Source: a virus (Duplodnaviria > Heunggongvirae > Uroviricota > Caudoviricetes). Taken from it: a stretch of DNA of 13,384 bases. The notes beneath the pieces were generated by a model, which worked only from the letters and a program-made list of their open reading frames with translations, made no database searches and was not told the DNA's origin. The position numbers and the translations under genes are program-made. The stretch lies in the IMG/VR virus record IMGVR_UViG_2548876943_000023, one strand, 5' to 3'. This document shows, piece by piece, positions 1 through 13,384 of this stretch (its first letter is position 1; each line of letters starts with the position of its first letter).

Positions 1-200
1 AGTTTGCTCCTGCCATAACGTGAAGAAGCAATGACCTGGTGGTCCGTGACTTCCCTACGCTGGCATTATCCAGATCAGGTAATACGGGTATTTCTTACTA
101 ATTACTTTTACCAGTTGATAATAAATAAGTTTTTAAGAACGCATAAATTAAAAGCCTCAGAACTGACCACACAACTGACCACACATTTTGTTGAAGCTCT

Positions 201-230
201 ACGAACAACGACGAACAATAACAAACAAAA
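201..230. repeat. Three tandem ~10-bp units ACGAACAACG / ACGAACAATA / ACAAACAAAA, preceded by a 2x tandem ACTGACCACACA (about 163-186)
   Basis: Read directly from the sequence. A similar ACGAACAA decamer triplet recurs at 7951-7980. A promoter-like TTGCTG-N18-TATCAT follows at about 238-267. Confidence 0.5.
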
Positions 231-1069
231 GGGAAATTTGCTGGTGGTTTTGCTTAACCGTTATCATTTTTCGGCTATCCGTCATGAAGCTGGTGGATGA
301 TCACGGATAACCAGGCATCCACAGCGCCTTAAAAAGCTGAACCCGACAAACATTTCTGCTTATCGGGTCCGATCGCTCTTTCTACTCGTGGCAGATGAGT
401 TTATTGGGAGAGGCGGAAACATTGTATCAGGCTATCCCCTTTCTGTGCTGATTTGCATAGTTGTATATAGCTGTGCGTCCACCAGACACGCAGGAATGGA
501 GTTTGTGAGGAACTATAAATCCTGCGCAAATTTTCCCGGCCCACTCAAATTGAGTTTTCCGAAAATATCAACGGCTTAGGCCAAAGACCGAAAACGGGCT
601 TTGTAAAAAATTAACCTAATACGGTCGCTTTAACCTACGGTAATCGTTCTGCTTCGATGTGTGTCCCCTCTGCGGCCATCATGACCATGCCATAACAAAA
701 ACCCCATATTCGTGGTTTTTCTGTGTCGGGGCTATTCTGCTGTTGCCGTGCTCGTGGATATTCTCCGGTATGCGGCTCCCCATATCGACATCAGGCCCAC
801 CAGCGTGAAGCGTTTTTCATTTTTCGCGGGTATAAAAAATCGATGGGGCTGGCAGTCCGGAAGACGTCAGGGTACAGAGATTTGACCCGCCCCTCCCTGT
901 GCATAAGCACAATAAGTAACCGAAGGCGGAATTCCGCCCTCGGTACTCACATATGAGAAACGATATTTCTTCCACCGATACCCTTTATTTGGGTATCGCG
1001 AGTAAGCCCCAAAATCTGGGTGTTACTCTTACTACCCAAACTACGGGTAGTTTCCGTAGTTTCATGGTC

Positions 1070-1089
1070 GAGTTGCAGATCTGCAACTC
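1070..1089. repeat. 20-bp perfect palindrome GAGTTGCAGATCTGCAACTC centred on AGATCT
   Basis: Exact 10+10 inverted repeat seen in sequence. Nearby are a CGATACCC-tttattt-GGGTATCG hairpin (976-998) and tandem GTAGTTTC x2 (1047-1063). Function unknown. Confidence 0.6.
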
Positions 1090-1220
1090 ACCCACCAGCG
1101 CAAGCAGAGCCACTAAATGATACGATATGAAGTGATACAAATCAGTAAACCACTTCAATTTTAAAAGACGCTACTCAACACAGTAAAGCGCCTTTTGTTA
1201 TTGTTTATATGCTTTCGAAA

Positions 1221-1260
1221 ACACAAATAAAAAGCACCAGTATGGTGCTTTGTGCTTTTA
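1221..1260. terminator. Bidirectional rho-independent terminator, mainly serving the minus-strand gene 1275-1637
   Basis: Stem AAGCACC (1232-1238), loop agtat, stem GGTGCTT (1244-1250). On the minus strand it is followed by TTTATTTGTGT; on the plus strand by TGTGCTTTT. It lies 25 bp past the stop of the 1275-1637 ORF. Confidence 0.6.
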
Positions 1261-1274
1261 ACGAGTCCAAATAC

Positions 1275-1637
1275 CTAGTACTCAGGAAGATTTTCTAAAT
1301 TATCCTTAGATGTACCATTGGCTCTAGTTGTAATGTAATCAATGTTGTTAACACGGTCTTTAACCACTTTTTGACCCTTCTTCCACTTACCGTCATCACC
1401 TATGAAAATGGTGTAAAACGTATAACCACTATCGATCTTATTCACTACCCACTGCCGTGTTTCTGATACCCCTCCCCCAACAGTATCCCCCTTATCAACA
1501 TGCACATACACATGGGTAATGTGAGTGTGCTTGTCGTTATATCGGACTTTAGAAATAAGGTAATCAGCCCATTTATCAATCATATTCCACCATAAGTTTG
1601 AACAGGAAAAGTCCTGCAATACTCTTATAAACAACAA
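1275..1637 (-). CDS. Hypothetical AT-rich cargo protein, His-rich motif HTHITHVYVHVDKGD; unknown function
   Basis: ORF in the six-frame track. The listed start is TTG at 1637 (upstream GGTAGGAAG). An alternative ATG at 1583 (MIDKWADYL..., upstream GGTGG) would give 101 aa. Visibly AT-rich compared with the adjacent terL. Sits between the terL stop and a terminator. No family recognised. Confidence 0.5.
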   Translation of the reverse strand: MLFIRVLQDFSCSNLWWNMIDKWADYLISKVRYNDKHTHITHVYVHVDKGDTVGGGVSETRQWVVNKIDSGYTFYTIFIGDDGKWKKGQKVVKDRVNNIDYITTRANGTSKDNLENLPEY

Positions 1638-1732
1638 AGCAGCGGCTTCCTACCCCACGATGGTAATATAGTGATCTAGAGCAATTTATATTTCCGATAA
1701 CATCGACACAACTCCACATTTACACTCTATTC

Positions 1733-3394
1733 TCAAATTCCATTAAATAAAGCCAACCGTTCTTTGTGGCTGTCGCTCATATCGAATGCAAATTCCTCAT
1801 GCTCTGCCTGGAATGTGCCAAACGCCATCAGCGCCGCAACACTCGGGTCTATCTTGTTGGATGATTTTTTCTTGTTCGGCTTGATATTGGCGTTTGCGTC
1901 ACTCTGCATCACAACATTACTCATTGACCAGGCCAGCACCGGATCACCACTATGCACAATCACCTTCCGGTTAACAAAAACCTCGAACGATTTCGCCGCC
2001 GGACTGAAACGAAGGTATGTTTGCGGGAACGGCTCCACCTCAAATCCTGCCCCCTGTAGCTGCGTCCTCAGGTGTGTGGCGTTCCATGTATCGAAACCCA
2101 CCAGCCTGATATTGAAATTCTCTGCATCCGCCATGATGTCATCACGGATACGGTCATAATCAATGCAGTCACCCGGTGTTGTGCGTATCCAGCCCGCCTT
2201 TACCCACTGGCGATAGATGGCGCGGTTTTTATTGGCGGGGTTCTGTAGCTGAAATTCCGGTAGATAGTGACGTGAAACCAGCATAATCTTTTTACCGACC
2301 GGGAAGGCATAGCACACGCTGGAAATATCGCTGGTTGATGATAAGTCCAGCCCCGCGTAGCACTCCTGCCCGTATAAATCCACCTCCGCGAACGTTCCGG
2401 CGCACTCCGCCCATGCACCGTTACCCATCCACGGCGTAGCCCCCTGACACCAGATATTGAATCGCTTGGTGAGCATTTCCACCCACTGCGACGGAATACC
2501 CCGCGCTTTCTGGATGGTTGAGGCCAGTTTTTCACGATCGACGGAAACATCGATATTGGGATTCGCCTTTATCCACATCGCCGGATCGTCAACCTCGCTT
2601 TCATCATCCAGCTCGTAAATCAGCACGAACATGGATTCGTTCACCTCTTCACCATCCAGTATCTGGCAGCAATAGTCGTAGTGTTGTTTACAGGCTGAAA
2701 CAACGTTGCTCCCCGATGTGGTGATGGCAAATAATAACCCCTCCGGACGCGCCCCCATTCCCAGTTCAAGCGCGGAATAAACCCCGTTGTCAGGGTGCAG
2801 GTGATATTCATCCACAATGGCAAGACTCGGATTTGTACCTTCAATGGTTGCCGCTTTTGCTGCCAGTGGCTTTAACAGGCTGTTGGTTTTCGGGTGTATC
2901 ACCTTGTGTGCCTGAATATTTACCCGCTTTCGTAACGGTCGGGATAAAAGGCACATCTGACGCGCATCATCAAACACGATCCGCGCCTGATCACGACTCA
3001 CGGCGGCGGTGTAAATATCCTGCTGCCCGTTTTCCATAACCAGAAACCAGTTAGCCAGGATAGCGGCGACCGTGGATTTGGCATTTTTTCGCGGTACTTC
3101 AATGAATGCGCTGGTGTATTTGCGCCGTCCGGTGGCCTTAACCTTAAAGCCCAGGATGCAGGCAAAGGCGAACTGCTGCCACGGCTCCAGTTCAATGGGG
3201 CTACCGCGCATTGCGCCTTTTACGTGCGGGCACACCCGGGAAAAGGCAATAAACCGCTCCACGACCTCCGGATCGAACGTGTAAAGGGGGTTTTCAAGGT
3301 CAGAAAAATACCGTTTAACGGCCTGTTTCAGTCGTTTACAGGCCGTAATTTTGCCGTTTTTTACGCCTTCTGCGTACTCATGCCAGGCGGTCAA
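1733..3394 (-). CDS. terL: Phage terminase large subunit (ATPase/nuclease)
   Basis: 553-aa ORF whose length and overall sequence character are those of a phage large terminase, placed immediately after terS. Start is TTG at 3394 with an upstream AGAGGAAGAGGA Shine-Dalgarno; it overlaps the terS 3' end by 17 nt. Confidence 0.9.
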   Translation of the reverse strand: MTAWHEYAEGVKNGKITACKRLKQAVKRYFSDLENPLYTFDPEVVERFIAFSRVCPHVKGAMRGSPIELEPWQQFAFACILGFKVKATGRRKYTSAFIEVPRKNAKSTVAAILANWFLVMENGQQDIYTAAVSRDQARIVFDDARQMCLLSRPLRKRVNIQAHKVIHPKTNSLLKPLAAKAATIEGTNPSLAIVDEYHLHPDNGVYSALELGMGARPEGLLFAITTSGSNVVSACKQHYDYCCQILDGEEVNESMFVLIYELDDESEVDDPAMWIKANPNIDVSVDREKLASTIQKARGIPSQWVEMLTKRFNIWCQGATPWMGNGAWAECAGTFAEVDLYGQECYAGLDLSSTSDISSVCYAFPVGKKIMLVSRHYLPEFQLQNPANKNRAIYRQWVKAGWIRTTPGDCIDYDRIRDDIMADAENFNIRLVGFDTWNATHLRTQLQGAGFEVEPFPQTYLRFSPAAKSFEVFVNRKVIVHSGDPVLAWSMSNVVMQSDANANIKPNKKKSSNKIDPSVAALMAFGTFQAEHEEFAFDMSDSHKERLALFNGI

Positions 3395-3734
3395 GCTCGT
3401 CCTCTTCCTCTGTTTCCGGTGGATTTCTGCGGCGGCTTACCGGGTCAAAACCCAGCAAAGAAGCCATTTTGATCATTATTCTTTCTGCGTCAGCCTTTGC
3501 GCTCAGGGCGGGGTTTCTGCTCTCGCTGCCCTGACTGTTAACAATGCTGAACCCGCGCGTCGCAAGGTCTTCGACGGCTTTGCGGTATATGGAGTAGTTA
3601 ACGCAATACAGTTCCAGATTGCTCCAGTCGGCTGGGGTAAGGTCTTCCCGCCCGGAAAGCTGGCGCGATTTTTCCTTCCACTGCCTGACCGCGATTTCAT
3701 CCAGGTAAGCGGGGACTTTTGGTGGTCTTGCCAT
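3378..3734 (-). CDS. terS: Phage terminase small subunit, P27-family-like
   Basis: 118 aa from an internal ATG (MARPPKVPAYLDEIAVRQWKEK...), with an acidic C-terminus EEEDELDRLA. The longer N-terminal extension in the ORF track is rejected because it is not protein-like and overlaps upstream sequence. Shine-Dalgarno is weak. Confidence 0.8.
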   Translation of the reverse strand: MARPPKVPAYLDEIAVRQWKEKSRQLSGREDLTPADWSNLELYCVNYSIYRKAVEDLATRGFSIVNSQGSESRNPALSAKADAERIMIKMASLLGFDPVSRRRNPPETEEEDELDRLA

Positions 3735-3853
3735 GTTCTTTTTTCGCCCAATTATTTTCAAAAAAATTCCCGTGCACAAAAATTTGAGGAGGCGGTCGGT
3801 GTCCGGCAGGGACGGTTTCGTCCTGAAAACCACCCCCACCCCCTCTGACGGCC

Positions 3854-4030
3854 TCACCAGCGATTGCGAAAACATTCCATGACCTCGCGGTCACGGTCGG
3901 TTAATCGCTTCGCTGTGGTGCGTTTTGTGCGCCCTGTCCTGTTGGCTTTGTGCTCTGTCTCCTGTGTCTTCCATGTGTCACGCTGCCTTATCAGTCCACG
4001 TATCAGCCTGGTTTGCTCCTGTTCAGTCAT
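3854..4030 (-). CDS. Small basic hypothetical protein (58 aa), possibly coupled to HNH
   Basis: Internal ATG at 4028-4030 overlaps the HNH 3' end by 8 nt (ATGACTGA). Product MTEQEQTRLIRGLIRQRDTWK... is highly basic. No recognisable family, so it may be spurious. Confidence 0.3.
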   Translation of the reverse strand: MTEQEQTRLIRGLIRQRDTWKTQETEHKANRTGRTKRTTAKRLTDRDREVMECFRNRW

Positions 4031-4463
4031 CATCGCCATACATCCAGTCGTTACGGTGTGCCGCCCGTTCTTCCTGCTCGCGATACATGCCCGCTTTACG
4101 GTTTGCTTTCGTGGCTGGATCTTCCCGTGTCGTCTTACGGTTGTGGCACGTCTGGCACAATGCCTGGTGATTCCACTCAGGCCAGAAGAGAACATCACCG
4201 CCGCCATTGATGGGAATGATGTGATCCACCACAAGAGCTGGTGTATAAATACCCTTAGCCAGACAACGCACGCATAACGGGTTTTTGCTCAGGTACAGGG
4301 CGCGGTATTTGTCCCACTGTCGGGAATACCCACGTGCGCGGCGGTGTCCCCGTCTGGCATCCTCTGCACGCCATGCAGCCCGCCTGTGCTCTTCACACTT
4401 GCCGGACTTCACGCGCTTATTACAGCCCGGCTCAGTGCATCGCCTTAATGGTTGCCACGGCAT
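4023..4463 (-). CDS. HNH endonuclease (packaging-associated)
   Basis: Cys pairs and the motif CVRCLAKGIYTPALVVDHIIPINGGGDVLFWPEWNHQALCQTCHNRKT (CxxC...DH...N...CxxCH) are typical of HNH. It is adjacent to terS/terL, as in HK97-like cos phages. Its ATG overlaps the connector stop. Confidence 0.85.
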   Translation of the reverse strand: MPWQPLRRCTEPGCNKRVKSGKCEEHRRAAWRAEDARRGHRRARGYSRQWDKYRALYLSKNPLCVRCLAKGIYTPALVVDHIIPINGGGDVLFWPEWNHQALCQTCHNRKTTREDPATKANRKAGMYREQEERAAHRNDWMYGDDD

Positions 4464-4765
4464 CAGTACACCCCCACATCACGATAAACCGACCAGAGCG
4501 CAGAAATAGCCATAGGCAGTTCCGAGTGCTCAACTGGTGAAACCGCTTCCCGGTTCTCGTACAGAAAAGCGATGTACATCAGGCAACCAACACGTATTGC
4601 CGGGGTAAATTCCAGGCCGTCTTCAAAACGTTTCCCGATATGCTTCTGGCAGGCTTCCAGCGCCGCATCGGTATATATTTGCAGAAGTTCAACCTCACCA
4701 TAAAAATCATCATCAAGGCGAAGATGGGCCATTACTTCATTAAGCGTAATTCTGGATTCACTCAT
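4463..4765 (-). CDS. Head-tail connector protein (gp6-like)
   Basis: 100 aa from ATG at 4765 (MSESRITLNEVMAHLRLDDD...), the characteristic N-terminal pattern of gp6-like connectors. Shine-Dalgarno AAGGTG is upstream. Start overlaps the portal 3' end by 8 nt. Confidence 0.75.
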   Translation of the reverse strand: MSESRITLNEVMAHLRLDDDFYGEVELLQIYTDAALEACQKHIGKRFEDGLEFTPAIRVGCLMYIAFLYENREAVSPVEHSELPMAISALWSVYRDVGVY

Positions 4766-5972
4766 CTTTTTCACCTTTAATTTCCACAGTCTGCTTCCAT
4801 GCCTGGCTGAACTCATCACCACCTTCACGCGGCGGCATACCCTCACGCTCACGGGCTTCGTTCGGATTCATGATCCCGTTCTTAATCCCTTTCTCATACG
4901 TGGCATAACGTTCGGTGGGTGTGGCGCGTAATAAATCGGCTGAATCAAACTCAACCAGATAACGGGTACCAGGTACGGGAGAAGCCACCAGCAAAGCGGC
5001 CTTGATTTGCTGTTCGAAGTTCGCCAGCCATGGGCGCATTGTCATGGTCAGAAACGCGCGGCTTGCCTCGCTGAAATTGCTGTAGGTGCTGTTGCTGTAT
5101 TCCTGCAGAAAAATAGGCGATACGTTGAACATGCGGGCGATGTCTTCAATGGAGAAGCGACGGGAGGCCAGCCATTCCGCATCCTGGTTACTCATTCCCA
5201 GTTGCTTGTAATCCATGCCCCCTTCAAGGATTGGCGTTTTTCCGGCATTTTTCGCCCCCTTGTAGCGTTCCAGAGCATCTAATGCCTGTTTACCTTTCAC
5301 GCCGTCCAGCCATTCGCCTGACGTGATAATCCCTGCCGCCATCATGCCATCTTTCATAATGCTGGCTCCGTGGCGCTGTTGAGCAAGGCCAAGCCCAAGT
5401 GCCTCACGGCAAATCGTGACGGGGGAGCGCCCCAGAAAGCCATCATCCGAGGCATAGCGGAGATGCAGAACTTCTTCCTGTAAATACGTGCGCACCGTTC
5501 CTGTATAGGGTTCGGTGATGGTATATCGGTATTTGTGTGCGCCTGTGCGTTCCGGTACAACACAACCCGGTGCATAAGGATGAAGTGATTTGGGCTGCCC
5601 GTCCCGCCCCCACTCAATAACCGCATAGGCGTTACCGTTCAGCAGGCAGTGACGCATCATTGTGCGTTTAAACTGGTAAGGTGTCTGGCACGAATTAGGC
5701 TGCTCATTCAGCAGAATATCTACCGGGTGACTGTCCAGCCATTCCCGCGCCTCCCTGCCCTTGTCATTACGTACCAGATACAGATAACACGGCATCGTGG
5801 CCACCGCCTCAGCGATGACAGAAACCGCGTTCATCACTGCAGGCAATGATTCAGCCGTCCCGGCAGAAACATATTCTCCGGATCCGGTATTCGGTACGCC
5901 GGACAGCGCCAGAAAATCATCAATGGACAGGTTACGCTGCTCGCTTTTTTTACGACTAAAAGGCCACCACAT
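4758..5972 (-). CDS. Phage portal protein, HK97 family
   Basis: 404 aa from ATG at 5972 (MWWPFSRKK...). Size and position fit an HK97-type portal, with an acidic C-terminus. The start lies 1 nt from the protease stop. Confidence 0.9.
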   Translation of the reverse strand: MWWPFSRKKSEQRNLSIDDFLALSGVPNTGSGEYVSAGTAESLPAVMNAVSVIAEAVATMPCYLYLVRNDKGREAREWLDSHPVDILLNEQPNSCQTPYQFKRTMMRHCLLNGNAYAVIEWGRDGQPKSLHPYAPGCVVPERTGAHKYRYTITEPYTGTVRTYLQEEVLHLRYASDDGFLGRSPVTICREALGLGLAQQRHGASIMKDGMMAAGIITSGEWLDGVKGKQALDALERYKGAKNAGKTPILEGGMDYKQLGMSNQDAEWLASRRFSIEDIARMFNVSPIFLQEYSNSTYSNFSEASRAFLTMTMRPWLANFEQQIKAALLVASPVPGTRYLVEFDSADLLRATPTERYATYEKGIKNGIMNPNEAREREGMPPREGGDEFSQAWKQTVEIKGEKDE

Positions 5973-5973
5973 A

Positions 5974-6534
5974 TCACAACCCCGCCAGCTCAGACCAACG
6001 ATGACGATTATTTCCTGTCGGACGTAATTCAGGGTGCTGTGCAAACAACGAACGGCGGGCAATCTCCACGCCAGATTCTGGATAAGCAGGCATCGACGTT
6101 ATTGTGATTTCACGGAGTTCAGCGGCGGTTACGGTACGCAGATACGGTTTTTGCGCAATACTCCACTCCTCGCATAATGCGCGAAAACCAAAGCTCATTC
6201 CTGTAATGTCGCCACGCTCCACCAGCGTAAGCACATCTTTTCCAAGCTGGGTATCCGGCGGTGTCAGCTCAAAACGTAACCCGGTGTTATCCTCAGTCAG
6301 TACCAGAGTGCCGGATTTGGTGCGCCCCAGCAGTTGGGTATAGTCATGCTCATACAGGCAGCGCACATCATTACCCGCCGCCAGATAGTCAGCAAAAGCC
6401 CCCGGCGTGAACTGTTCGCGGAATTCGTCCCAGATAATTTCTGAAAGGCTGTTCCAGCGAACGGCATACCCCACCAGCTTTTTATTGCTGGCGGTCAGTT
6501 CAGATGTGCGGATTTCAAAATCGGTGTTTTTCAT
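5974..6534 (-). CDS. Prohead protease, HK97 family
   Basis: 186 aa with motifs LVGYAVRWNS...FTPGAF...YEHD...LGRT...TEDNTGLRFEL...GMSFGF consistent with HK97 prohead protease. GGAG Shine-Dalgarno 8 nt upstream. Confidence 0.85.
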   Translation of the reverse strand: MKNTDFEIRTSELTASNKKLVGYAVRWNSLSEIIWDEFREQFTPGAFADYLAAGNDVRCLYEHDYTQLLGRTKSGTLVLTEDNTGLRFELTPPDTQLGKDVLTLVERGDITGMSFGFRALCEEWSIAQKPYLRTVTAAELREITITSMPAYPESGVEIARRSLFAQHPELRPTGNNRHRWSELAGL

Positions 6535-6588: not shown

Positions 6589-7758
6589 CTAGCCAGCTTT
6601 CATTTCCAGAATTTTGATGGCGTTTGAATCCACCACACCACCGCCCAGATATTTATCCGTGTGGACCTTGTAGAATCCGGGTTCAGTAATGTTGTCCGGT
6701 CGGGTGCGAATCCCTGTTACATGATCAACGATGAAATAACCACGACTGAAATCGCCAACCGCTAGCGGTGCTTTTCCTGCGCCGATGTCCGGCATGGACT
6801 CCAGGCAGTAAACAGGACGACCAAGCAACATATCCGGCGCACCTTCTTTAAGGCTGTCGCGCCAGATATAATCGCCGTTCTCATTTTTCAGCTTCTGTAG
6901 TGTCCCTGCCGTGCCCGAGTTCATCACCCAGACGGCATTTTTGCGGTATTTCGCTTTCAGCTTGTAGAGAATGTCGATCAGTTCGTCCGCTGTAATGGCG
7001 GTTCCACTTGCCGCTACCATTTTTTCAATGGTGCCAAAAGCGCGGGTTTTGTCACTGGTCGCCGCACGGGTGTAAGCCATGAAGCCTTTCGGCTTGCCGT
7101 TACCGTCGCCATTAACAAAATCATCCTCTTCGGTGCTGGCGAACGTGTCGGCAATTTCGGAGGATAACCAGCCCAGAATATCCACCTCTGAAAAATCAAG
7201 GATTTCCTGCGTGGTTTTCGGGTAGGCGTAGATCGGATTCAGCTTGATGGTTACGCGTTCAATTTTCGGGGTGTTGGTTTCACTGCGTGCGCTGCCTTCT
7301 GTGCCTCGTCCTACAGTTGCGCCGCCAGTGGAAACCAGTTTCTGAAACTCATTTGATTTTGCGGTCTTCACGGTCGCGATCACGCGCATAACACTGTCAT
7401 CCTGTAGCTGGCGCATGACTTCGCGATCGAGCTCAGGAATTACGGTATATCCGCCATCCCTGCCGCTGTCAGTGCTGGTGGACAGTGATCGCACATCTCC
7501 GGTTACGATGTAGTTACGCAATTCATCAGATGATAATTTCTGGATGCCCGTTCCTGGCTTGCTGCGTTCTTCATCAGCCACAGACTCGAGGCGGGAAATT
7601 TCTGTGTCGAGGGAGTCGGCTTTTGCACGCAGTTCATCAAACTGTTTGCCCTCGTCATCGTTCAGGCTGCGGTTTTCACTGTCGGCTTTTTCCAGCAGAG
7701 ATCGCATCTGGTTTTTCAGGGCGGTTTTTTGCTGGCGGAGTTCGATTAATTTCTTCAT
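6589..7758 (-). CDS. Major capsid protein, HK97 family, with N-terminal coiled-coil (delta/scaffold-like) region
   Basis: 389 aa. The N-terminal ~70 aa (MKKLIELRQQKTALKNQMRSLLEKADSENRSL...) look like a coiled coil, followed by a body typical of an HK97-fold capsid. Gene order context supports the call. Confidence 0.9.
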   Translation of the reverse strand: MKKLIELRQQKTALKNQMRSLLEKADSENRSLNDDEGKQFDELRAKADSLDTEISRLESVADEERSKPGTGIQKLSSDELRNYIVTGDVRSLSTSTDSGRDGGYTVIPELDREVMRQLQDDSVMRVIATVKTAKSNEFQKLVSTGGATVGRGTEGSARSETNTPKIERVTIKLNPIYAYPKTTQEILDFSEVDILGWLSSEIADTFASTEEDDFVNGDGNGKPKGFMAYTRAATSDKTRAFGTIEKMVAASGTAITADELIDILYKLKAKYRKNAVWVMNSGTAGTLQKLKNENGDYIWRDSLKEGAPDMLLGRPVYCLESMPDIGAGKAPLAVGDFSRGYFIVDHVTGIRTRPDNITEPGFYKVHTDKYLGGGVVDSNAIKILEMKAG

Positions 7759-7828
7759 GAAGGTTTTCTCGTATTGGTTAAGATTCAGGACGTGAAACCA
7801 ACACGGAGGGAGCGCCGCCCGACACTCT

Positions 7829-7878
7829 CGGCATCTCGCAGATCAACCCGGCATCGCGCAGGGGGTCAGGCGGCATTG
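7829..7878. promoter_or_regulatory. Phased direct repeats CGGCATCTCGCAG / CGGCATCGCGCAG / CGGCATTG upstream of the capsid operon
   Basis: Repeats start at 7829, 7849 and 7871, about two helical turns apart, and lie 70-120 bp upstream of the capsid ATG on the minus strand. Possibly activator sites; function inferred. Confidence 0.3.
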
Positions 7879-7950
7879 TGGCGGCTCACGTCTGAGTGCC
7901 ACGCTCCAACATATACATAAAAATCAGTATGTAAACACCTGTCAGTCAGA

Positions 7951-7980
7951 CCGAACAACCACGAAAGAACACGAACAAAT
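7951..7980. repeat. Three tandem decamers CCGAACAACC / ACGAAAGAAC / ACGAACAAAT directly upstream of the cassette promoter
   Basis: Read from the sequence. Same ACGAACAA motif family as 201-230. Confidence 0.5.
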
Positions 7981-7982
7981 AA

Positions 7983-8044
7983 TTTACAAAAGAAGTAAAC
8001 CATGGCCTATTATTGCTGTCTCTGACTACAACAAAGGACGCATC
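7983..8044 (+). promoter_or_regulatory. Sigma70-like promoter and RBS for the antisense cargo gene
   Basis: TTTACA (7983-7988), about 18-19 bp spacer, TATTAT (8008-8013). Shine-Dalgarno AAAGGA (8033-8038) is 6 nt before the ATG at 8045. Confidence 0.45.
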
Positions 8045-8551
8045 ATGAATTTAAGCGCAATGGTATACCCTGATACTTTCATAATTAATGGCGAATCATT
8101 CAGAGGTAAAAGAAACGCAAAAGAAAACAAGGTATTAATTCCATATACAAATGAACCGGAAGTAACTATTGGTCAACACATTATCCAGCGTGTCGGTAAA
8201 AACGAGATAAATCTAAAAATTATAGATATGAAGTTGCTTCCCAATGGAACCCTCAGACAGGGAACCAATCATCCAAATATGTTGACTCTCTATATTGAAA
8301 ATATCACGGGAAATGAACATATGACGCCAACTAAAAGTAATACATTTAACATTGGTTCAATTAGTGGTGATCAAGTGCAGATAGGTGAGCATAACCATAT
8401 GCTGGTAAACATCAGCATCACTGAACTGGTTGAAAAAGTCGCTAAATCGGGGGATGTACAAGCCAAATCAGTATTAAAGCAGTTACTGGAAAACAGTACC
8501 GTTGCCAGCATTGTTGGGGCTGGCGCAAGTGCCCTAATAGGCTTACTGTAA
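8045..8551 (+). CDS. Hypothetical cargo protein (168 aa) with hydrophobic C-terminal segment; candidate defence or helper-interference effector
   Basis: Clean ORF on the opposite strand to all backbone genes. Visibly AT-rich, with N/I/K-rich codon usage. Has its own promoter, Shine-Dalgarno and terminator. The C-terminal 17 aa (TVASIVGAGASALIGLL) form a small-residue-rich hydrophobic helix. No family recognised. Confidence 0.7.
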   Translation: MNLSAMVYPDTFIINGESFRGKRNAKENKVLIPYTNEPEVTIGQHIIQRVGKNEINLKIIDMKLLPNGTLRQGTNHPNMLTLYIENITGNEHMTPTKSNTFNIGSISGDQVQIGEHNHMLVNISITELVEKVAKSGDVQAKSVLKQLLENSTVASIVGAGASALIGLL

Positions 8552-8557
8552 AAAAAT

Positions 8558-8588
8558 GGCCTGGATTTTACCAGGCCTTTATTATTTT
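8558..8588. terminator. Bidirectional rho-independent terminator between convergent genes
   Basis: GGCCTGG-atttta-CCAGGCC, followed by TTTATTATTTT on the plus strand and, in reverse complement, by ATTTTTTT on the minus strand. Confidence 0.7.
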
Positions 8589-8835
8589 ACCGTTTCACGG
8601 GATCGCGCATTCTGCGCCTTATTTTCCACAGATATTCGATCATCGCTTCCACCTGTTCACGGTTGGTTGCGAAAATTTCCCCGGTCAGTGAGCTACGCAG
8701 AAAATCATGATGATCCACAACAAACAACGCATCGGAAGAAAGCAGACGGCGATATTTTTTTGCTGTCATGGTTTCCAGATCATCAAAATCATGAAACTTT
8801 TTATGTTGCTGGACTTCTTCAAATGTCACTGGCAT
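8587..8835 (-). CDS. Hypothetical small protein (82 aa)
   Basis: ATG at 8835 (MPVTFEEVQQHKKFHDFDDLE...) with a GAGGGGA Shine-Dalgarno, 16 bp after the SSB-like stop. The N-terminal extension shown in the ORF track would overlap the SSB-like gene and is rejected. Confidence 0.55.
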   Translation of the reverse strand: MPVTFEEVQQHKKFHDFDDLETMTAKKYRRLLSSDALFVVDHHDFLRSSLTGEIFATNREQVEAMIEYLWKIRRRMRDPVKR

Positions 8836-8851
8836 GTCCCCTCTGTTGTCG

Positions 8852-9277
8852 CTAAAACGGTATGTTGTCCCCGTACGGATCATCGTGCTGACCCGTCTGC
8901 TGTTTTGCCCTGTTCAGTGCGTCAGTCGCCTGGCTCTGCTGGCCTTTTTTGCCGCCCGGTCGCACCGTTCGCGCACTGATTACGCTGTCTGCGATAACCT
9001 GCCAGCCTTGCCGCGTTTCGCCGTTCTGGCCTGTCCACTGGCTTACCTGCATGTTACCCACCACGCTCACCAGTTCGCCTTTGTGGTGTTTTGCCAGTGC
9101 ATCGGCCTGTCTGCCAAACGCCAGAACAGAAAGCCACATCGTCACCGCACCATCATCAGCCTGACTGCATGGCTGGGGGACCGCCATACTTACCATCGCC
9201 ATTTGTGTACCCTTGCTGGTGGTCTTTAACTGCGGGTCATTTGTCAGCCGCCCGTAAGCGGCTATCTGTGCTGTCAT
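8852..9277 (-). CDS. SSB-like OB-fold single-stranded DNA-binding protein (short form)
   Basis: The N-terminal pattern (IAAYGRLTNDPQLK...) and the core (W-LSVLAFGRQAD-ALAKHHKGELVSVVGNMQVSQWTGQNGETRQGWQVIADSV) resemble bacterial SSB. The C-terminal tip ...DDPYGDNIPF matches the SSB acidic tail ending in IPF. ATGA overlap with the upstream ORF and GGAGGGA Shine-Dalgarno. Confidence 0.65.
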   Translation of the reverse strand: MTAQIAAYGRLTNDPQLKTTSKGTQMAMVSMAVPQPCSQADDGAVTMWLSVLAFGRQADALAKHHKGELVSVVGNMQVSQWTGQNGETRQGWQVIADSVISARTVRPGGKKGQQSQATDALNRAKQQTGQHDDPYGDNIPF

Positions 9278-9519
9278 GATTCCATCCCTCCGGTGTTAAC
9301 GTTGATGGTTGTCACCTGTTCCGCTTCGGCAATCTCCCGCTCTATCAGCGTGGCAAAATTTGCCGCCGCCGTGGTCATGAATGCGCTTATCAGTTCGGGA
9401 TGTGCTTTCGCGTATCCTTCCCCGGCGTTGCGGTCGATGATTTTTATCGACACCCTTAACCAGTGTTCCGTCAAATCAAGGGCGTGCGATTGTGATTTTT
9501 TTGTGTGCTTCGCTGTCAC
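9274..9519 (-). CDS. Hypothetical small protein (81 aa), GTG start
   Basis: ORF translationally coupled to the SSB-like gene (ATGA overlap). Only a GTG start is available at 9519, with a weak Shine-Dalgarno. No family recognised. Confidence 0.4.
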   Translation of the reverse strand: MTAKHTKKSQSHALDLTEHWLRVSIKIIDRNAGEGYAKAHPELISAFMTTAAANFATLIEREIAEAEQVTTINVNTGGMES

Positions 9520-9564
9520 AGGCTTTATCTCACAGCAGTAAATTAAAATTTTTGCGTTTTAACC

Positions 9565-9786
9565 CTTCACCTGTTCACCTTTTGATATTTTCTCTTTTAA
9601 TTCATAATGTTAAGGGGTGAACAGTTTCAAAAAAACTATTCACCAACTGTTCACCACTGTTCACCCTTGAAGCTCAATAAACAATCAAAAAGGTGAACAG
9701 TGAATAGTTTGGTGAACAGTTCATAAATAACTGTTCACCCTATAATATACTGATATAAAAGATATTTATGACAGGGTGAACAGTTA
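9565..9786. repeat. Iteron array (about 10 copies of GGTGAACAGT(T) and variants, both orientations) flanking an AT-rich core; putative origin of replication
   Basis: Copies at about 9571-9579, 9616-9626, 9636-9644, 9645-9655, 9656-9666, 9692-9700, 9700-9707, 9711-9721, 9729-9740 and 9775-9786. AT-rich stretch 9741-9770 includes TATAAT. The array lies immediately 3' of the primase/helicase stop, as with PICI/SaPI origins. Confidence 0.6.
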
Positions 9787-9796
9787 TTCCATAAGT

Positions 9797-11614
9797 TTAA
9801 TTTTTGCTATCGCCATTAGTGACCGATACACATGATGGCATCCAGTCTTCTGATTCCTCCGTCAGTGTCACGTTTGAACGCAAACCGTGCTTCGTTTTCC
9901 GTTTCATATACTCCCTGCCATATTCCGCCATTGCCCCCGGCATATCTTTACCGAAGCGCGTCAGTGTTACAGGTTTACCAAACCCATGTGCCCTCATATA
10001 AGCCAGATAGGCATGATAGAGATACCTGCGTGGGCTGAATGGCACAATTTCAGCATTACCCACTAACAGGCCATCACACATTACCGACGCCATGAGATAG
10101 CCGCAGAAGTCCACCAGCGAATCCCCCTCTCGCTTTATCGCCAGTGCTTCTTCAGATTTCTGCTGCTCATATAACAGGCGTCTGGCTTCGTCCTGGTCAG
10201 CAAACCGTGTAAGCAGATGGCGAATCACTACCGCCAGCTCACCTTCTATTTTTTCCGCCAGCATTGGATCACGTTCGTTCTCCGGTACAACTTCCGAAAA
10301 ATTGAATATCACCCGACGACGTGAGATCCCCCCGCTGCGGTCACTGAATGACATAGCGTTATTGTTAACCGCCAGCACTACTGCCGGAATACGTGTTGAG
10401 TAGGGGGCTTTGTGTTTCGGGTCAATTGCCACCTTGTCACCGCCTGTAATAGCCTTAATCCCTGCCCCATCACCAGCGTAGCGGGTCATATCCGGCATGA
10501 TAATCAGCGAAAAGCCAACCACTAACGCGCGTTCCCTTGCATCTTCCAGCGCCTTCATGCTTGCCGATACTGTGTTGGCCTTACCCGCCAGCATGGTGCA
10601 AATCTCCGCCATCACGCTTTTACCACTTCCCCCTGGACCTGTTACCTCAATGAATAACTGCCAGTCGTACCGGTTCGCCAGCACCATGAATAATGCAGCC
10701 AGTACGCGATCCGCCTTGCGGTCATTCTCAGCCACCGAACGGCGTAACCACTTCCAGAAATTCGGCGCATGTGTTGCCAGCGTTTCCCCCTCTGCTGGTG
10801 GGCTGAAAGGTAATTCACTGGCAATTAACAACCAGTCGTTTTTGTTATGCTCCCGAAAATTACCTGTTCTGGTATCAAATACCCCGTTACTGAATCCAAT
10901 CAGGTTACGGGCTGTATTCCCCATTACAGGCAAACTTAACTTCATGGTATCGACCGCCGATTTAATGGCGTTCTGCGAATAGCTGATCTCCGCATCAATG
11001 AAAATCTGTGCCATAGCTCGCTGTAATTCTTTATCCTGTACTGGCTCCCATACAACGCCGTTGTAATGGTGAACAGTGTCAGAGTCAGCATGAATCGCCA
11101 GTTCACCGCCATAATGTGCCAGGAGAACTTCGCCGCGTTGACTTGCTCCCATCTGGTTAAGCGCCAGTGATGAAGCGTTATCGTCTTTTACCCGCTCTTT
11201 TTTCTTTACAGGCAGTTCAACTACCTTTTTCTTTTCCGCCAGCTCTGCCCGTTCACGTTCCAGATATTCGTGCCAGTTCTCCCGTTTCTGGCTGTGCATT
11301 CCTTCAGGATAATAATCAGCATCCCTGACACCTGCCGCTGCCAGTTTCTGCCCGATGGTATTAACAAGCACCGGACGCAATAACCCCGCCTGATAGAGAC
11401 GCACGCGATAGCGTCCGTCCGGTACGATTTGCAGGTTGTCCAGTTCGGCAAGTTGTTGCTCTCCAAGCCAGACAGGTGGCACGTTATCGCCTGCCAGTCG
11501 CCCGTCCTGTTCCTGCCACTGCTTCGCATGTGCCCACGCATCACTACCCGCAAAAATGATGACTTCCGTCATTTTGTCACGCGGCTGGTGTTTTAAATTT
11601 GGCGCTTTTTTCAT
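9797..11614 (-). CDS. Primase/helicase, P4-family (D5-like) replication protein
   Basis: About 605 aa from ATG at 11614 (MKKAPNLKHQ...). Walker A motif VTGPGGSGKS and the downstream layout are typical of phage/plasmid P4-family primases. GGAGAG Shine-Dalgarno. ATGA overlap with the upstream ORF. Confidence 0.85.
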   Translation of the reverse strand: MKKAPNLKHQPRDKMTEVIIFAGSDAWAHAKQWQEQDGRLAGDNVPPVWLGEQQLAELDNLQIVPDGRYRVRLYQAGLLRPVLVNTIGQKLAAAGVRDADYYPEGMHSQKRENWHEYLERERAELAEKKKVVELPVKKKERVKDDNASSLALNQMGASQRGEVLLAHYGGELAIHADSDTVHHYNGVVWEPVQDKELQRAMAQIFIDAEISYSQNAIKSAVDTMKLSLPVMGNTARNLIGFSNGVFDTRTGNFREHNKNDWLLIASELPFSPPAEGETLATHAPNFWKWLRRSVAENDRKADRVLAALFMVLANRYDWQLFIEVTGPGGSGKSVMAEICTMLAGKANTVSASMKALEDARERALVVGFSLIIMPDMTRYAGDGAGIKAITGGDKVAIDPKHKAPYSTRIPAVVLAVNNNAMSFSDRSGGISRRRVIFNFSEVVPENERDPMLAEKIEGELAVVIRHLLTRFADQDEARRLLYEQQKSEEALAIKREGDSLVDFCGYLMASVMCDGLLVGNAEIVPFSPRRYLYHAYLAYMRAHGFGKPVTLTRFGKDMPGAMAEYGREYMKRKTKHGLRSNVTLTEESEDWMPSCVSVTNGDSKN

Positions 11615-11910
11615 TTCTGCTCTCTCCACGCGGCAATCATGTTTTTCAGTTCCTGTAGTTTTTTATCAACATCCATACATGACACATGGTTATTTCTGGA
11701 AAGCGGGATTTCCCGCCTGAATCTGCTAATAAAGATCTCCACGTTCAGCGAACTATGAAATGAATAGCCATCACGAATAAAATACACACGGTCAAACATC
11801 AGTTCTTTTACCGTTACTCTGTTACCGTTCTTATCCAGATAAATAGCGCCGGGGATAATTTTGGGGTGTGCATAACCGCTGGCAGTCAAGCCAGATAAAT
11901 ATGTTCTCAT
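11611..11910 (-). CDS. Hypothetical protein (99 aa), translationally coupled to the primase
   Basis: ATG at 11910; its stop overlaps the primase start. Visibly lower GC than the primase. No family recognised. Confidence 0.55.
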   Translation of the reverse strand: MRTYLSGLTASGYAHPKIIPGAIYLDKNGNRVTVKELMFDRVYFIRDGYSFHSSLNVEIFISRFRREIPLSRNNHVSCMDVDKKLQELKNMIAAWREQK

Positions 11911-13159: not shown

Positions 13160-13384
13160 CTAGGCTGCCTTACCTGAATTAACGCGGTCACGGCTTTGCA
13201 CCCAGTCCATAACTTCGGAAAGCAACCAGCCTACAGAACGCCCCCCAAGATTACGGCGAGACGGAAAGCCCCCTTTCTTCTCCAGTTCGTAGCGTGTAGT
13301 ACGGCTGACGCCTGTTAACTTACGACATTCATCCTCACGAATTACGCGATCTGTTAGTGATTGAAATTGTGTATTTTGATTCAT
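13160..13384 (-). CDS. alpA: AlpA-family (excisionase-like, MerR-type HTH) transcriptional regulator
   Basis: 74 aa. The pattern LTGVSRTTRYELEKKGGFPSRRNLGGRSVGWLLSEVMDWVQSR is typical of AlpA/prophage regulatory proteins. The ATG is the last three bases of the window, so its promoter and any integrase lie outside. Confidence 0.85.
   Translation of the reverse strand: MNQNTQFQSLTDRVIREDECRKLTGVSRTTRYELEKKGGFPSRRNLGGRSVGWLLSEVMDWVQSRDRVNSGKAA

Follow-up and report, generated by a model that had tools for sequence, protein, structure and literature searches.

A mobile DUF3892 gene cassette in the post-terL position of an Escherichia coli capsid-forming PICI

Background

DUF3892 (PF13031) is a very widespread and strongly conserved protein family, with about 1,500 representatives after clustering at 50% identity, drawn from many bacterial phyla and from archaea, and it recurs in conflict settings. 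The domain has been described as a three-stranded beta meander followed by a helix (bioRxiv 10.1101/2025.01.14.632903), and the prediction that it belongs to conflict systems is attributed to Burroughs & Aravind 2020 by Lau et al. (bioRxiv 10.1101/2022.04.27.489752). In the operons regulated by CapH/CapP, members of the same family are the sole cargo of the regulated unit (Lau et al.). In addition, homologous domains with the same C-terminal motif are found in the fusion proteins Min-Wnt-DUF3892 (bioRxiv 10.1101/2025.01.14.632903) and AbiJ_NTD5-TIR-DUF3892 (P0093). The literature that we searched contained neither an experiment on any DUF3892 protein nor a solved structure for the family.

Capsid-forming PICIs (cf-PICIs) have a characteristic gene order, as described for EcCIEDL933 (bioRxiv 10.1101/2022.09.08.507074). 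[quoted passage not shown] Immune cargo is also known from the hotspots of P4 and P2 elements (PMC9122126, PMC13586616), and six of eight randomly chosen unknown P4-hotspot loci protected against phages (PMC13586616). In islands of the EcCIEDL933 type, the position directly after terL is occupied by a gene for a 93-aa protein (e.g. WP_000133425.1).

Here we describe a DUF3892 gene from a 13,384-nt viral record (IMGVR_UViG_2548876943_000023), the whole of which is referred to below as the window. The encoded protein does not differ from other members of DUF3892 and PHROG 32719: it is a stand-alone protein of about 100 aa with a full-length family match, a DNL motif and a C-terminal LPxF. The gene does differ from the CapH/CapP-regulated operons, since the window has no divergently transcribed capH/capP pair upstream of it or elsewhere, its upstream neighbor is terL on the same strand, and its putative control consists of its own promoter and read-through from the late operon. 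It shares with satellite immune cargo the type of location, AT-richness, a swappable and apparently self-transcribed organization and conserved flanks; however, the P4/P2 hotspot systems are typically much larger, whereas this gene encodes a single 102-aa protein that matches no catalogued defence system. With the 93-aa protein of EcCIEDL933-type islands it has in common the position and the strand, but the 93-aa protein is unrelated in sequence, has conserved basic C-terminal residues and is translationally coupled to terL. The gene thus lies outside the catalogued defence systems, the cf-PICI core and the CapH/CapP-linked subset of its family.

The DUF3892 family, the RefSeq annotation of the protein and the variability of the post-terL slot were already known. 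The new observations are a promoter-to-terminator cassette that occurs in integrated elements of two unrelated kinds, the alternative genes that fill the post-terL slot, an orphan copy beside fis, and the absence of any conserved partner among the sampled loci and of any structural relative in PDB and BFVD.

Organization and boundaries of the island

The window carries an E. coli cf-PICI inserted in the thiM leader. We assigned it to this class by the presence of alpA, a replication gene, genes for capsid, protease, portal, connector and HNH endonuclease, terS, terL and an integrase, by a size of 10-18 kb, and by the lack of tail and lysis genes. The open reading frames and their Pfam matches gave, all on the minus strand, an AlpA-type regulator (13160-13384), primase (9797-11629), SSB (8852-9277), major capsid protein (6589-7758), HK97-type protease (5974-6534), portal (4758-6062), head-tail connector (4463-4852), HNH endonuclease (4023-4463), terS (3378-3875) and terL (1733-3394, with TerL_ATPase and TerL_nuclease domains), the last gene of the packaging operon. 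No tail or lysis gene appeared among the open reading frames and Pfam matches of the window. The only missing element is the integrase, which is present, together with the full island of about 14.5 kb, in three collinear islands annotated in complete E. coli genomes (L001, L005 and L007).

The true left end of the island is marked by the att core AATACGGGTATTTCT at 81-95, as the empty site of strain K-12 matches only positions 1-95 of the window; the same 15-mer recurs in the homologous island L007, at its integrase-side junction. An island end at about 1100, suggested by the extent of chromosomal matches, was ruled out by the same empty site. The widespread matches to about 677-1098 arise because many genomes carry the ends of related islands. 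As for the att target, it is the thiM leader, and neither a tRNA nor a tmRNA is present. The sequence-only reading had placed the DUF3892 gene after the packaging genes and at the end of the island. It is indeed the last gene of the island and follows terL, but it does not mark the island end, since about 1.1 kb of further island DNA separates it from the att core.

The DUF3892 gene and its start codon

The DUF3892 coding sequence occupies positions 1275-1583 on the minus strand (309 nt) and encodes 102 aa from an ATG at 1583-1581 to a TAG stop at 1277-1275; the assignment draws on the open reading frame, the Pfam and RefSeq matches, the dN/dS values and the AF2 model. A longer frame (1275-1637, minus strand) would give 120 aa from a TTG, and the choice between TTG 1637 and ATG 1583 had been left ambiguous by the sequence-only reading. 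Several observations settle it in favor of ATG 1583, which is the true start. First, the RefSeq/PGAP annotation has the ATG form (WP_024226535.1, 'DUF3892 domain-containing protein', 102 aa). Second, the ATG is preceded by a Shine-Dalgarno-like GGTGGA (1586-1591, minus strand), and the homologue in Pectobacterium has GGAGGA at the equivalent position. Third, the 60 nt upstream of the ATG are conserved between the E. coli and Klebsiella copies but with a 1-nt indel, and this stretch is therefore not coding, because the indel would shift the frame. The TTG start is ruled out by this frame-breaking indel and by its location upstream of the conserved -10-like TATAAG described below.

The GC content of the gene is 0.392, and that of the entire cassette (1099-1757) is 0.376; terL, in comparison, has 0.519, and the packaging module as a whole has 0.525. 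The gene is thus clearly more AT-rich than its neighbors, as had been noticed from the letters.

Regulatory signals of the cassette

An intrinsic terminator lies 3' of the stop codon at 1222-1251 on the minus strand. Its hairpin, AAAGCACCA-TAC-TGGTGCTTT (1251-1231), has a 9-bp stem and a 3-nt loop and is followed directly by the T-rich tail TTATTTGTGT (1230-1222), and thus has the GC-containing stem and adjacent T-run of a rho-independent terminator. The RNA fold has a dG of -11.4 kcal/mol (z = -2.4), and the terminator scan reported three terminator-like sites in 900-2000 versus 0.7 +/- 0.8 in shuffled sequences. Cassettes from Klebsiella, Pectobacterium and the fis-site island have a hairpin of different sequence at the equivalent position. 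The strong terminator that had been proposed for this gene is thus borne out by scan, fold and positional conservation. On the minus strand between terL and the DUF3892 gene (1584-1732), in contrast, the scan found no terminator-like site.

Upstream of the gene we read a candidate sigma-70-type promoter (1624-1652, minus strand), with -35 TAGGAA at 1652-1647, a 17-nt spacer and -10 TATAAG at 1629-1624. The promoter-like site is kept in position across distant cassettes, for example as TTGGCA-18-TATAAA in Pantoea (L022), and from its sequence and position we infer that it is used. The consensus scanner did not report the site at 1624-1652 because its -10 element ends in G.

The predicted transcript would start with a short 5'-UTR hairpin, CAGGA-CTTT-TCCTG (1603-1616, minus strand). 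Its fold (dG -7 kcal/mol) is not significant when taken alone (z -0.9), but the stem is kept by changed sequences in the homologues (CAGG/CCTG, GCAGAA/TTCTGC, CAGC/GCTG). No Rfam family was matched within or around the cassette.

Protein family, conservation and fold

The protein is a plain member of DUF3892, as already annotated in RefSeq. It matched the Pfam profile PF13031 over positions 2-71 of 71 with an E-value of 1.7e-9 and 38.5 bits against a curated cut-off of 22.3; the only other family matches were two PHROGs of unknown function, including PHROG 32719. There was no meaningful match in NCBIfam and no significant match in PADLOC-DB 2.0, where only PtuA appeared at an E-value of 0.03 with no accepted stretch. 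Neither the protein nor a profile of 43 sequences retrieved anything from the PDB sequences. A word-index search found 48 close relatives. When 1.84 billion cluster representatives were searched with a profile, 1,526 reached E <= 0.001, and nearly all of these are stand-alone proteins of about 100 aa. One cluster representative is the AbiJ_NTD5-TIR-DUF3892 fusion (P0093). Being a bare domain without an effector, the window protein cannot act in cis as a sensor-effector fusion.

Across 189 aligned relatives, the strongly conserved features are the N-terminal K-W-A-D-Y-x-I-S, the residues R43, T58, W67, G70 and T86, and the C-terminal D-N-L-x-x-L-P-x-F/Y (D 99%, N 94%, L 99%, L 97% and P 96%). 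The DNL motif corresponds to D94 N95 L96, and with its 102 aa the protein falls within the range of about 80-130 aa of stand-alone DUF3892 proteins with this motif. Pairwise dN/dS values of 0.02-0.12 versus homologues show that the protein is under strong purifying selection. By residue count, its charge is near-neutral rather than strongly basic.

The AF2 model (pLDDT 91) has strands at 8-15, 22-30 and 35-42, a helix at 43-51 and three further strands, and thus contains the beta meander and helix previously described for DUF3892 (bioRxiv 10.1101/2025.01.14.632903). A structure search of this model against PDB and BFVD gave no significant match, and a significant superposition on a solved structure of the double-stranded RNA-binding domain (dsRBD) or ribosome hibernation factor (HPF) class was not obtained. 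Altogether, the homology and structure searches called for by the sequence-only reading yielded DUF3892 and PHROGs without a function, no homology to the head module and no structural match in PDB or BFVD.

Distribution among related islands

We searched 5,426 complete E. coli genomes with terL and the adjacent open reading frame as the query. Matches were found in 539 genomes, three of which had the DUF3892 part only, and the remaining 536 carry this terL lineage. The DUF3892 gene adjoins terL in 15 of the 536 (four copies are 100% identical and eleven are 90.9% identical). In strain 042, terL is 98.7% identical and no gene is annotated after it, whereas most other cf-PICIs have an unrelated 93-aa protein, or a 63-aa variant, in the post-terL slot. 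Over all 5,426 genomes, the 93-aa gene is present in 1,579 and the DUF3892 gene in 18. The gene is therefore absent or replaced in most related islands, as expected if it is accessory cargo. Homology to a head-module component or conservation as part of the core would have spoken against this reading; neither was found, and the cargo interpretation is supported on both counts.

BLASTN breakpoints delimit a replaceable cargo cassette at 1099-1757, which takes in the final ~22 nt of terL and extends just past the terminator: in one island (L023) the flanks align at 677-1098 and from 1758 onward, and in another (L003) the alignment runs from 1757. The cassette is also found in different islands. 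An identical DUF3892 protein is encoded in islands with different integrases at clpS/cspD and at thiM/rcnR, and a gene with 91% nucleotide identity is located at fis/yhdJ. Between the window and this fis-site island (L002), dS is 0.36 for the DUF3892 gene versus 1.63 for the adjacent terL. Together with the different integrases, this difference indicates that the transfer of the cassette between island lineages was independent of the packaging genes. Our analysis thus supports an accessory, mobile and self-contained gene, located at the att-distal end of satellites, that is not a component of the capsid or the packaging machinery.

The cassette and its family in other genomes

In Klebsiella and related Enterobacterales, a protein with 80-85% identity is always encoded by the last gene of satellite-like elements at the hpt site, read outward to hpt. 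These elements carry a P4-alpha-like primase and variable SEFIR/TIR, reverse-transcriptase, GAPS4, DUF4238 or SIR2 genes. The DNA homology between the window and the Klebsiella elements is limited to 1277-1642, that is, from the promoter region to the stop codon, and these copies have their own hairpin terminator. The aligned cassettes keep the -35/-10-like pair, the short 5' hairpin (in its pairing, not in its sequence) and a terminator hairpin, which differs in sequence. Three Pectobacterium genomes have the DUF3892 gene as a lone gene beside fis.

More distant relatives occupy diverse contexts. At about 50% identity, relatives are flanked by type IIG and type I restriction systems or by a Gabija-like pair and an OLD-family gene. 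A 41%-identical relative in a P2-like prophage adjoins tail-fibre and baseplate genes and has an IS transposase and a muramidase on its opposite side. True phages contain a DUF3892 relative in only one of 50,697 phage records. Viral contigs contain it in 23 of 2.9 million, and 17 of these 23 are 14-18 kb long with the gene near one end, which is the size of cf-PICIs. In a scan of one genome per species, we identified 226 relatives with 36-59% identity to the window protein. They are spread over Proteobacteria, Campylobacterota, Actinomycetota, Chloroflexota, Acidobacteriota, Bacteroidota, Planctomycetota, Saccharimonadia and Firmicutes among bacteria, and over Bathyarchaeia, Methanobacteriota and Nitrosotalea among archaea.

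For the analysis of neighbors, all open reading frames within 4 kb were clustered at 80 diverse loci. No neighbor family was common to more than eight of the 80 loci, and hence no conserved partner gene was found in this sample. The commonest neighbor (8 of 80 loci, 10%) is an upstream CapP-like HEXXH peptidase; some of these loci also have a gene for a CapH-like HTH protein. This reproduces the finding of Lau et al. The other nearest neighbors in this broad genome sample are mixed, and the majority are not defence genes; five Bathyarchaeia genomes, for example, have the DUF3892 gene after ATP-synthase genes, with universal-stress-protein genes nearby. The gene does not fit a toxin-antitoxin or toxin-immunity pair, as there is no partner open reading frame in the cassette and none is conserved at the 80 loci. 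The lack of a shared neighbor at these loci shows that the protein does not depend on an obligate partner, and given the breadth of the family in bacteria and archaea, its target is presumably one that both domains share. The association of DUF3892 with defence, as read from raw gene contexts, is genuine in Enterobacterales and in a number of other settings.

Proposed role and alternative explanations

Tentatively, and with slightly less than even confidence, we interpret the cassette as an autonomous accessory ('moron') unit whose stand-alone cytoplasmic DUF3892 protein acts as a single-protein factor in the conflict among phage, host and satellite. In the integrated island, the gene's own promoter would provide basal transcription; induction of the island by a helper phage would add transcription by read-through from the packaging operon, and the DUF3892 hairpin would end the whole late transcript. 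Such an expression model would parallel the damage-induced expression of the DUF3892 genes controlled by CapH/CapP. The protein itself is predicted by the AF2 model to be one compact beta-rich domain, beta-beta-beta-alpha-beta-beta-beta with a packed C-terminal tail, in which K4 W5 D7 Y8, R43, T58, W67, G70, T86, D94 N95 L96 and L99 P100 F/Y102 may form one binding site. The bound target, for example RNA, the ribosome or a nucleotide, would exist in bacteria and archaea alike, and its binding could protect the host or the island against competing phages.

In support of a role in conflict we count the membership in DUF3892, the accessory status, the mobility, the self-contained organization, the conflict contexts, the retention of a lone gene, the low dN/dS values and the breadth of the family. 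The prior for satellites, taken from the six protective loci out of eight in P4 hotspots, may also be regarded as favorable. Against it we count the lack of a PADLOC match, the mostly non-defence neighbors in the broad sample, the ATP-synthase setting in Bathyarchaeia, the near-neutral charge and the promoter missed by the consensus scanner, as well as the size of the protein, since 102 aa without a recognizable catalytic motif is small for a full sensor and effector. A bolder version of the proposal, to which we assign a rather low probability, is that the DUF3892 domain on its own suffices as a complete conflict module of minimal size, acting on a universal target (the translation apparatus, RNA or an immune signalling nucleotide), moved as a cassette at the att-distal ends of satellites and switched on with the late operon. 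If true, it would be among the smallest self-sufficient anti-phage or anti-defence factors.

The window provides a tractable case for these questions, as it holds a self-contained cassette of 450 bp in an E. coli cf-PICI for which there are natural isogenic comparators, namely the same slot with a different gene or with nothing. A function shown for this gene would give a function for the whole DUF3892 family and would at the same time test the proposed immune-cargo role of the post-terL slot in cf-PICIs. Conversely, inactivity in phage assays would limit the assumption that the cargo of satellite hotspots is defence.

Among the alternatives, the one that survives best, though we consider it unlikely, is counter-defence. 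The stand-alone DUF3892 protein would mimic the sensor or ligand-binding domain of immune proteins such as TIR-DUF3892 and Min-Wnt-DUF3892 and serve as a decoy or sponge that shields the satellite and its helper on entry into a new host. Tad1, Tad2 and Acb2 are phage sponge or decoy proteins that are likewise small, single-domain and partner-less. The existence of the same domain fused to effectors in host proteins agrees with this explanation, as does the nature of the carriers, which are elements that must establish in new hosts; late-operon read-through would also provide expression during induction. However, the orphan chromosomal gene in Pectobacterium and the apparently housekeeping neighborhoods in archaea leave no obvious beneficiary, control of the CapH/CapP type is typical of host defence operons (bioRxiv 10.1101/2022.04.27.489752), and the family is nearly absent from true phages and from viral contigs other than those of cf-PICI size.

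Slightly less probable still is a factor in general stress or physiology that has no link to phages, for instance a dormancy factor that binds the translation machinery or RNA, or a binder of a small ligand, which would benefit the host and hitch-hike on mobile elements. The deep conservation across bacteria and archaea, the synteny with ATP-synthase and universal-stress-protein genes in Bathyarchaeia, and the heterogeneous immediate neighbors without a partner gene all point in this direction, and CapH/CapP responds to DNA damage in general (bioRxiv 10.1101/2022.04.27.489752). Yet the distribution of the family is sporadic and clearly horizontal, the copies in Enterobacterales are confined to satellite ends and defence-rich islands, and fusions with TIR and AbiJ domains exist.

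An accessory role in packaging or in the capsid, as a functional substitute for the 93-aa protein, is very improbable. The DUF3892 gene has the exact position of the 93-aa gene, of which no trace is left in the window, it could be co-transcribed with terL given that no terminator lies between them, and a small gene of the EcCIEDL933 packaging module ('hypothetical gene 1792') affects transfer. On the other hand, a relation between the two proteins was ruled out, since tblastn with the 93-aa protein gave no match in the window, and no Pfam family covers the 93-aa proteins. The DUF3892 gene is not translationally coupled either: it is separated from terL by a 149-nt gap with a promoter-like site, in contrast to the 93-aa gene, which starts 2-13 nt from the terL stop. 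Furthermore, the hpt-site elements carry the cassette without capsid or terminase genes in the sampled flanks (up to 8-9 kb upstream), relatives reside in restriction-modification islands and archaeal chromosomes, the 042 island with its nearly identical terL has neither gene, and there is no match to virion proteins in sequence or fold. Carriage in 15 of 536 genomes does not correspond to a core packaging gene of cf-PICIs.

The emphasis that the sequence-only reading had placed on histidines fared less well than its cargo interpretation: the unusual stretch HTHITHVYVHVDKGD is present at residues 19-33, but its histidines are not a family feature. Metal binding through the histidines of HTHITHVYVH is thus the least credible explanation, despite four histidines within ten residues and a face of the predicted strand beta2 on which H24, Y26, H28 and D30 would share exposure to solvent if the strand alternates regularly, because the protein has no Cys/His motif typical of structural metal sites, its histidines are poorly conserved among the 189 relatives (H19 36%, H21 61%, H28 54%, and at position 24 His falls outside the three commonest residues, at under 12%), and positions 24 and 26 are most often occupied by lysine.

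Insertion of the island into the thiM TPP riboswitch

The island, a capsid-forming phage-inducible chromosomal island (cf-PICI) of Escherichia coli, interrupts the aptamer of the thiM TPP riboswitch (window 35-122, minus strand). The att core, AATACGGGTATTTCT, lies at 81-95, and the empty site of strain K-12 aligns to window positions 1-95 only. The intact K-12 aptamer scores 71.2 bits against the Rfam model versus 34.7 bits for the copy in the window, which falls below the Rfam threshold of 54.3 bits because its 5' third consists of island DNA. The insertion displaces the native thiM promoter to the island's opposite end.

Island DNA at the thiM-proximal end

About 1.1 kb of island DNA (window 96-1230) separates the att core from the terminator of the DUF3892 cassette, and in this interval we found neither a convincing ORF nor a match to an Rfam family. 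Tandem AACTGACCACACA repeats occur at approximately 165-190 and again at the integrase-side junction, and possibly represent arm-type sites. The segment 764-1098, which includes hairpins at 919-944 and 1064-1089, is 96-99% identical among islands residing at three different att sites. The adjacent segment of about 450 bp (311-763) is present in the window and in one comparison locus (L006), and is missing from two islands (L007 and L023) that occupy the same att site and are otherwise collinear with the window. This segment may represent a small insertion or deletion polymorphism.

Other variable genes of cf-PICIs

In most E. coli cf-PICIs, terL is followed directly by the gene for a conserved protein of 93 amino acids (63 in one variant), as in the comparison loci L034 (2173-2454), L035 (2191-2475), L023 (3295-3576), and L037 (2273-2464). 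The gene starts 2-13 nt past terL and is present in 1,579 of 5,426 genomes, and it is absent from the window. The protein has conserved basic residues at its C-terminus and matches no Pfam family. Mutation of 'hypothetical gene 1792' impairs transfer of the cf-PICI EcCIEDL933 (bioRxiv 10.1101/2022.09.08.507074); the 93-aa protein may or may not be the product of that gene.

A second cargo-like AT-rich region (GC content 0.38) is located directly upstream of the capsid operon. It contains a 168-aa ORF (8045-8551) on the plus strand, opposite to the capsid operon, that belongs to PHROG 5789 (function unknown) and shows a weak, sub-threshold RHIM-like match at residues 110-119 (E 0.014), followed by a 98-aa ORF on the minus strand (8587-8883; PHROG 1957). 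The 8045-8883 region corresponds to the other variable region of cf-PICIs according to He et al. (bioRxiv 10.1101/2025.02.11.637232).

Related islands in strains 042 and tcmA_3

In E. coli 042 (L003, region 7729-10642), the cf-PICI adjoins a truncated prophage gene for the TerL nuclease, and beside this gene lies an HK97-like head and tail module that is complete; from this arrangement, the island appears to have integrated within a prophage terminase gene. E. coli tcmA_3 is one of the genomes in which the DUF3892 region is 100% identical to that of the window; the annotation of its island records a frameshift in the major capsid gene (L001, 21482-22626), and this copy of the island may be defective in capsid formation.

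DUF3892 genes in other genomic contexts

The DUF3892 cassette also forms the end of each of the following hpt-site and related elements of Enterobacterales: L008-L017, L025, L028-L030, and L040. They combine a primase of the P4-alpha-like or DUF927 kind with a variable defense gene (SEFIR/TIR, RT, GAPS4, SIR2, or DUF4238) and with tail-related genes (a Gp53-like_C fiber, Caudo_TAP, Phage_TAC_7, and a 584-aa protein with an SLT domain), and the sampled flanks show no capsid or terminase genes. They may constitute a distinct satellite type. A shorter, 81-aa DUF3892 gene, found in E. coli Ec1120 (L004, 8999-9244) and two further genomes, adjoins hpt at the end of a BREX island riddled with IS elements; the N-terminus of its product has been replaced, and the first two strands are missing. 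The gene is probably what remains of an hpt-site cassette.

In five genomes of Bathyarchaeia (L107, L113, L115, L117, and L120), the DUF3892 gene is located shortly downstream of A/V-type ATP-synthase genes and of genes for a universal stress protein and a small membrane protein, a syntenic and apparently non-mobile setting unlike those in bacteria.
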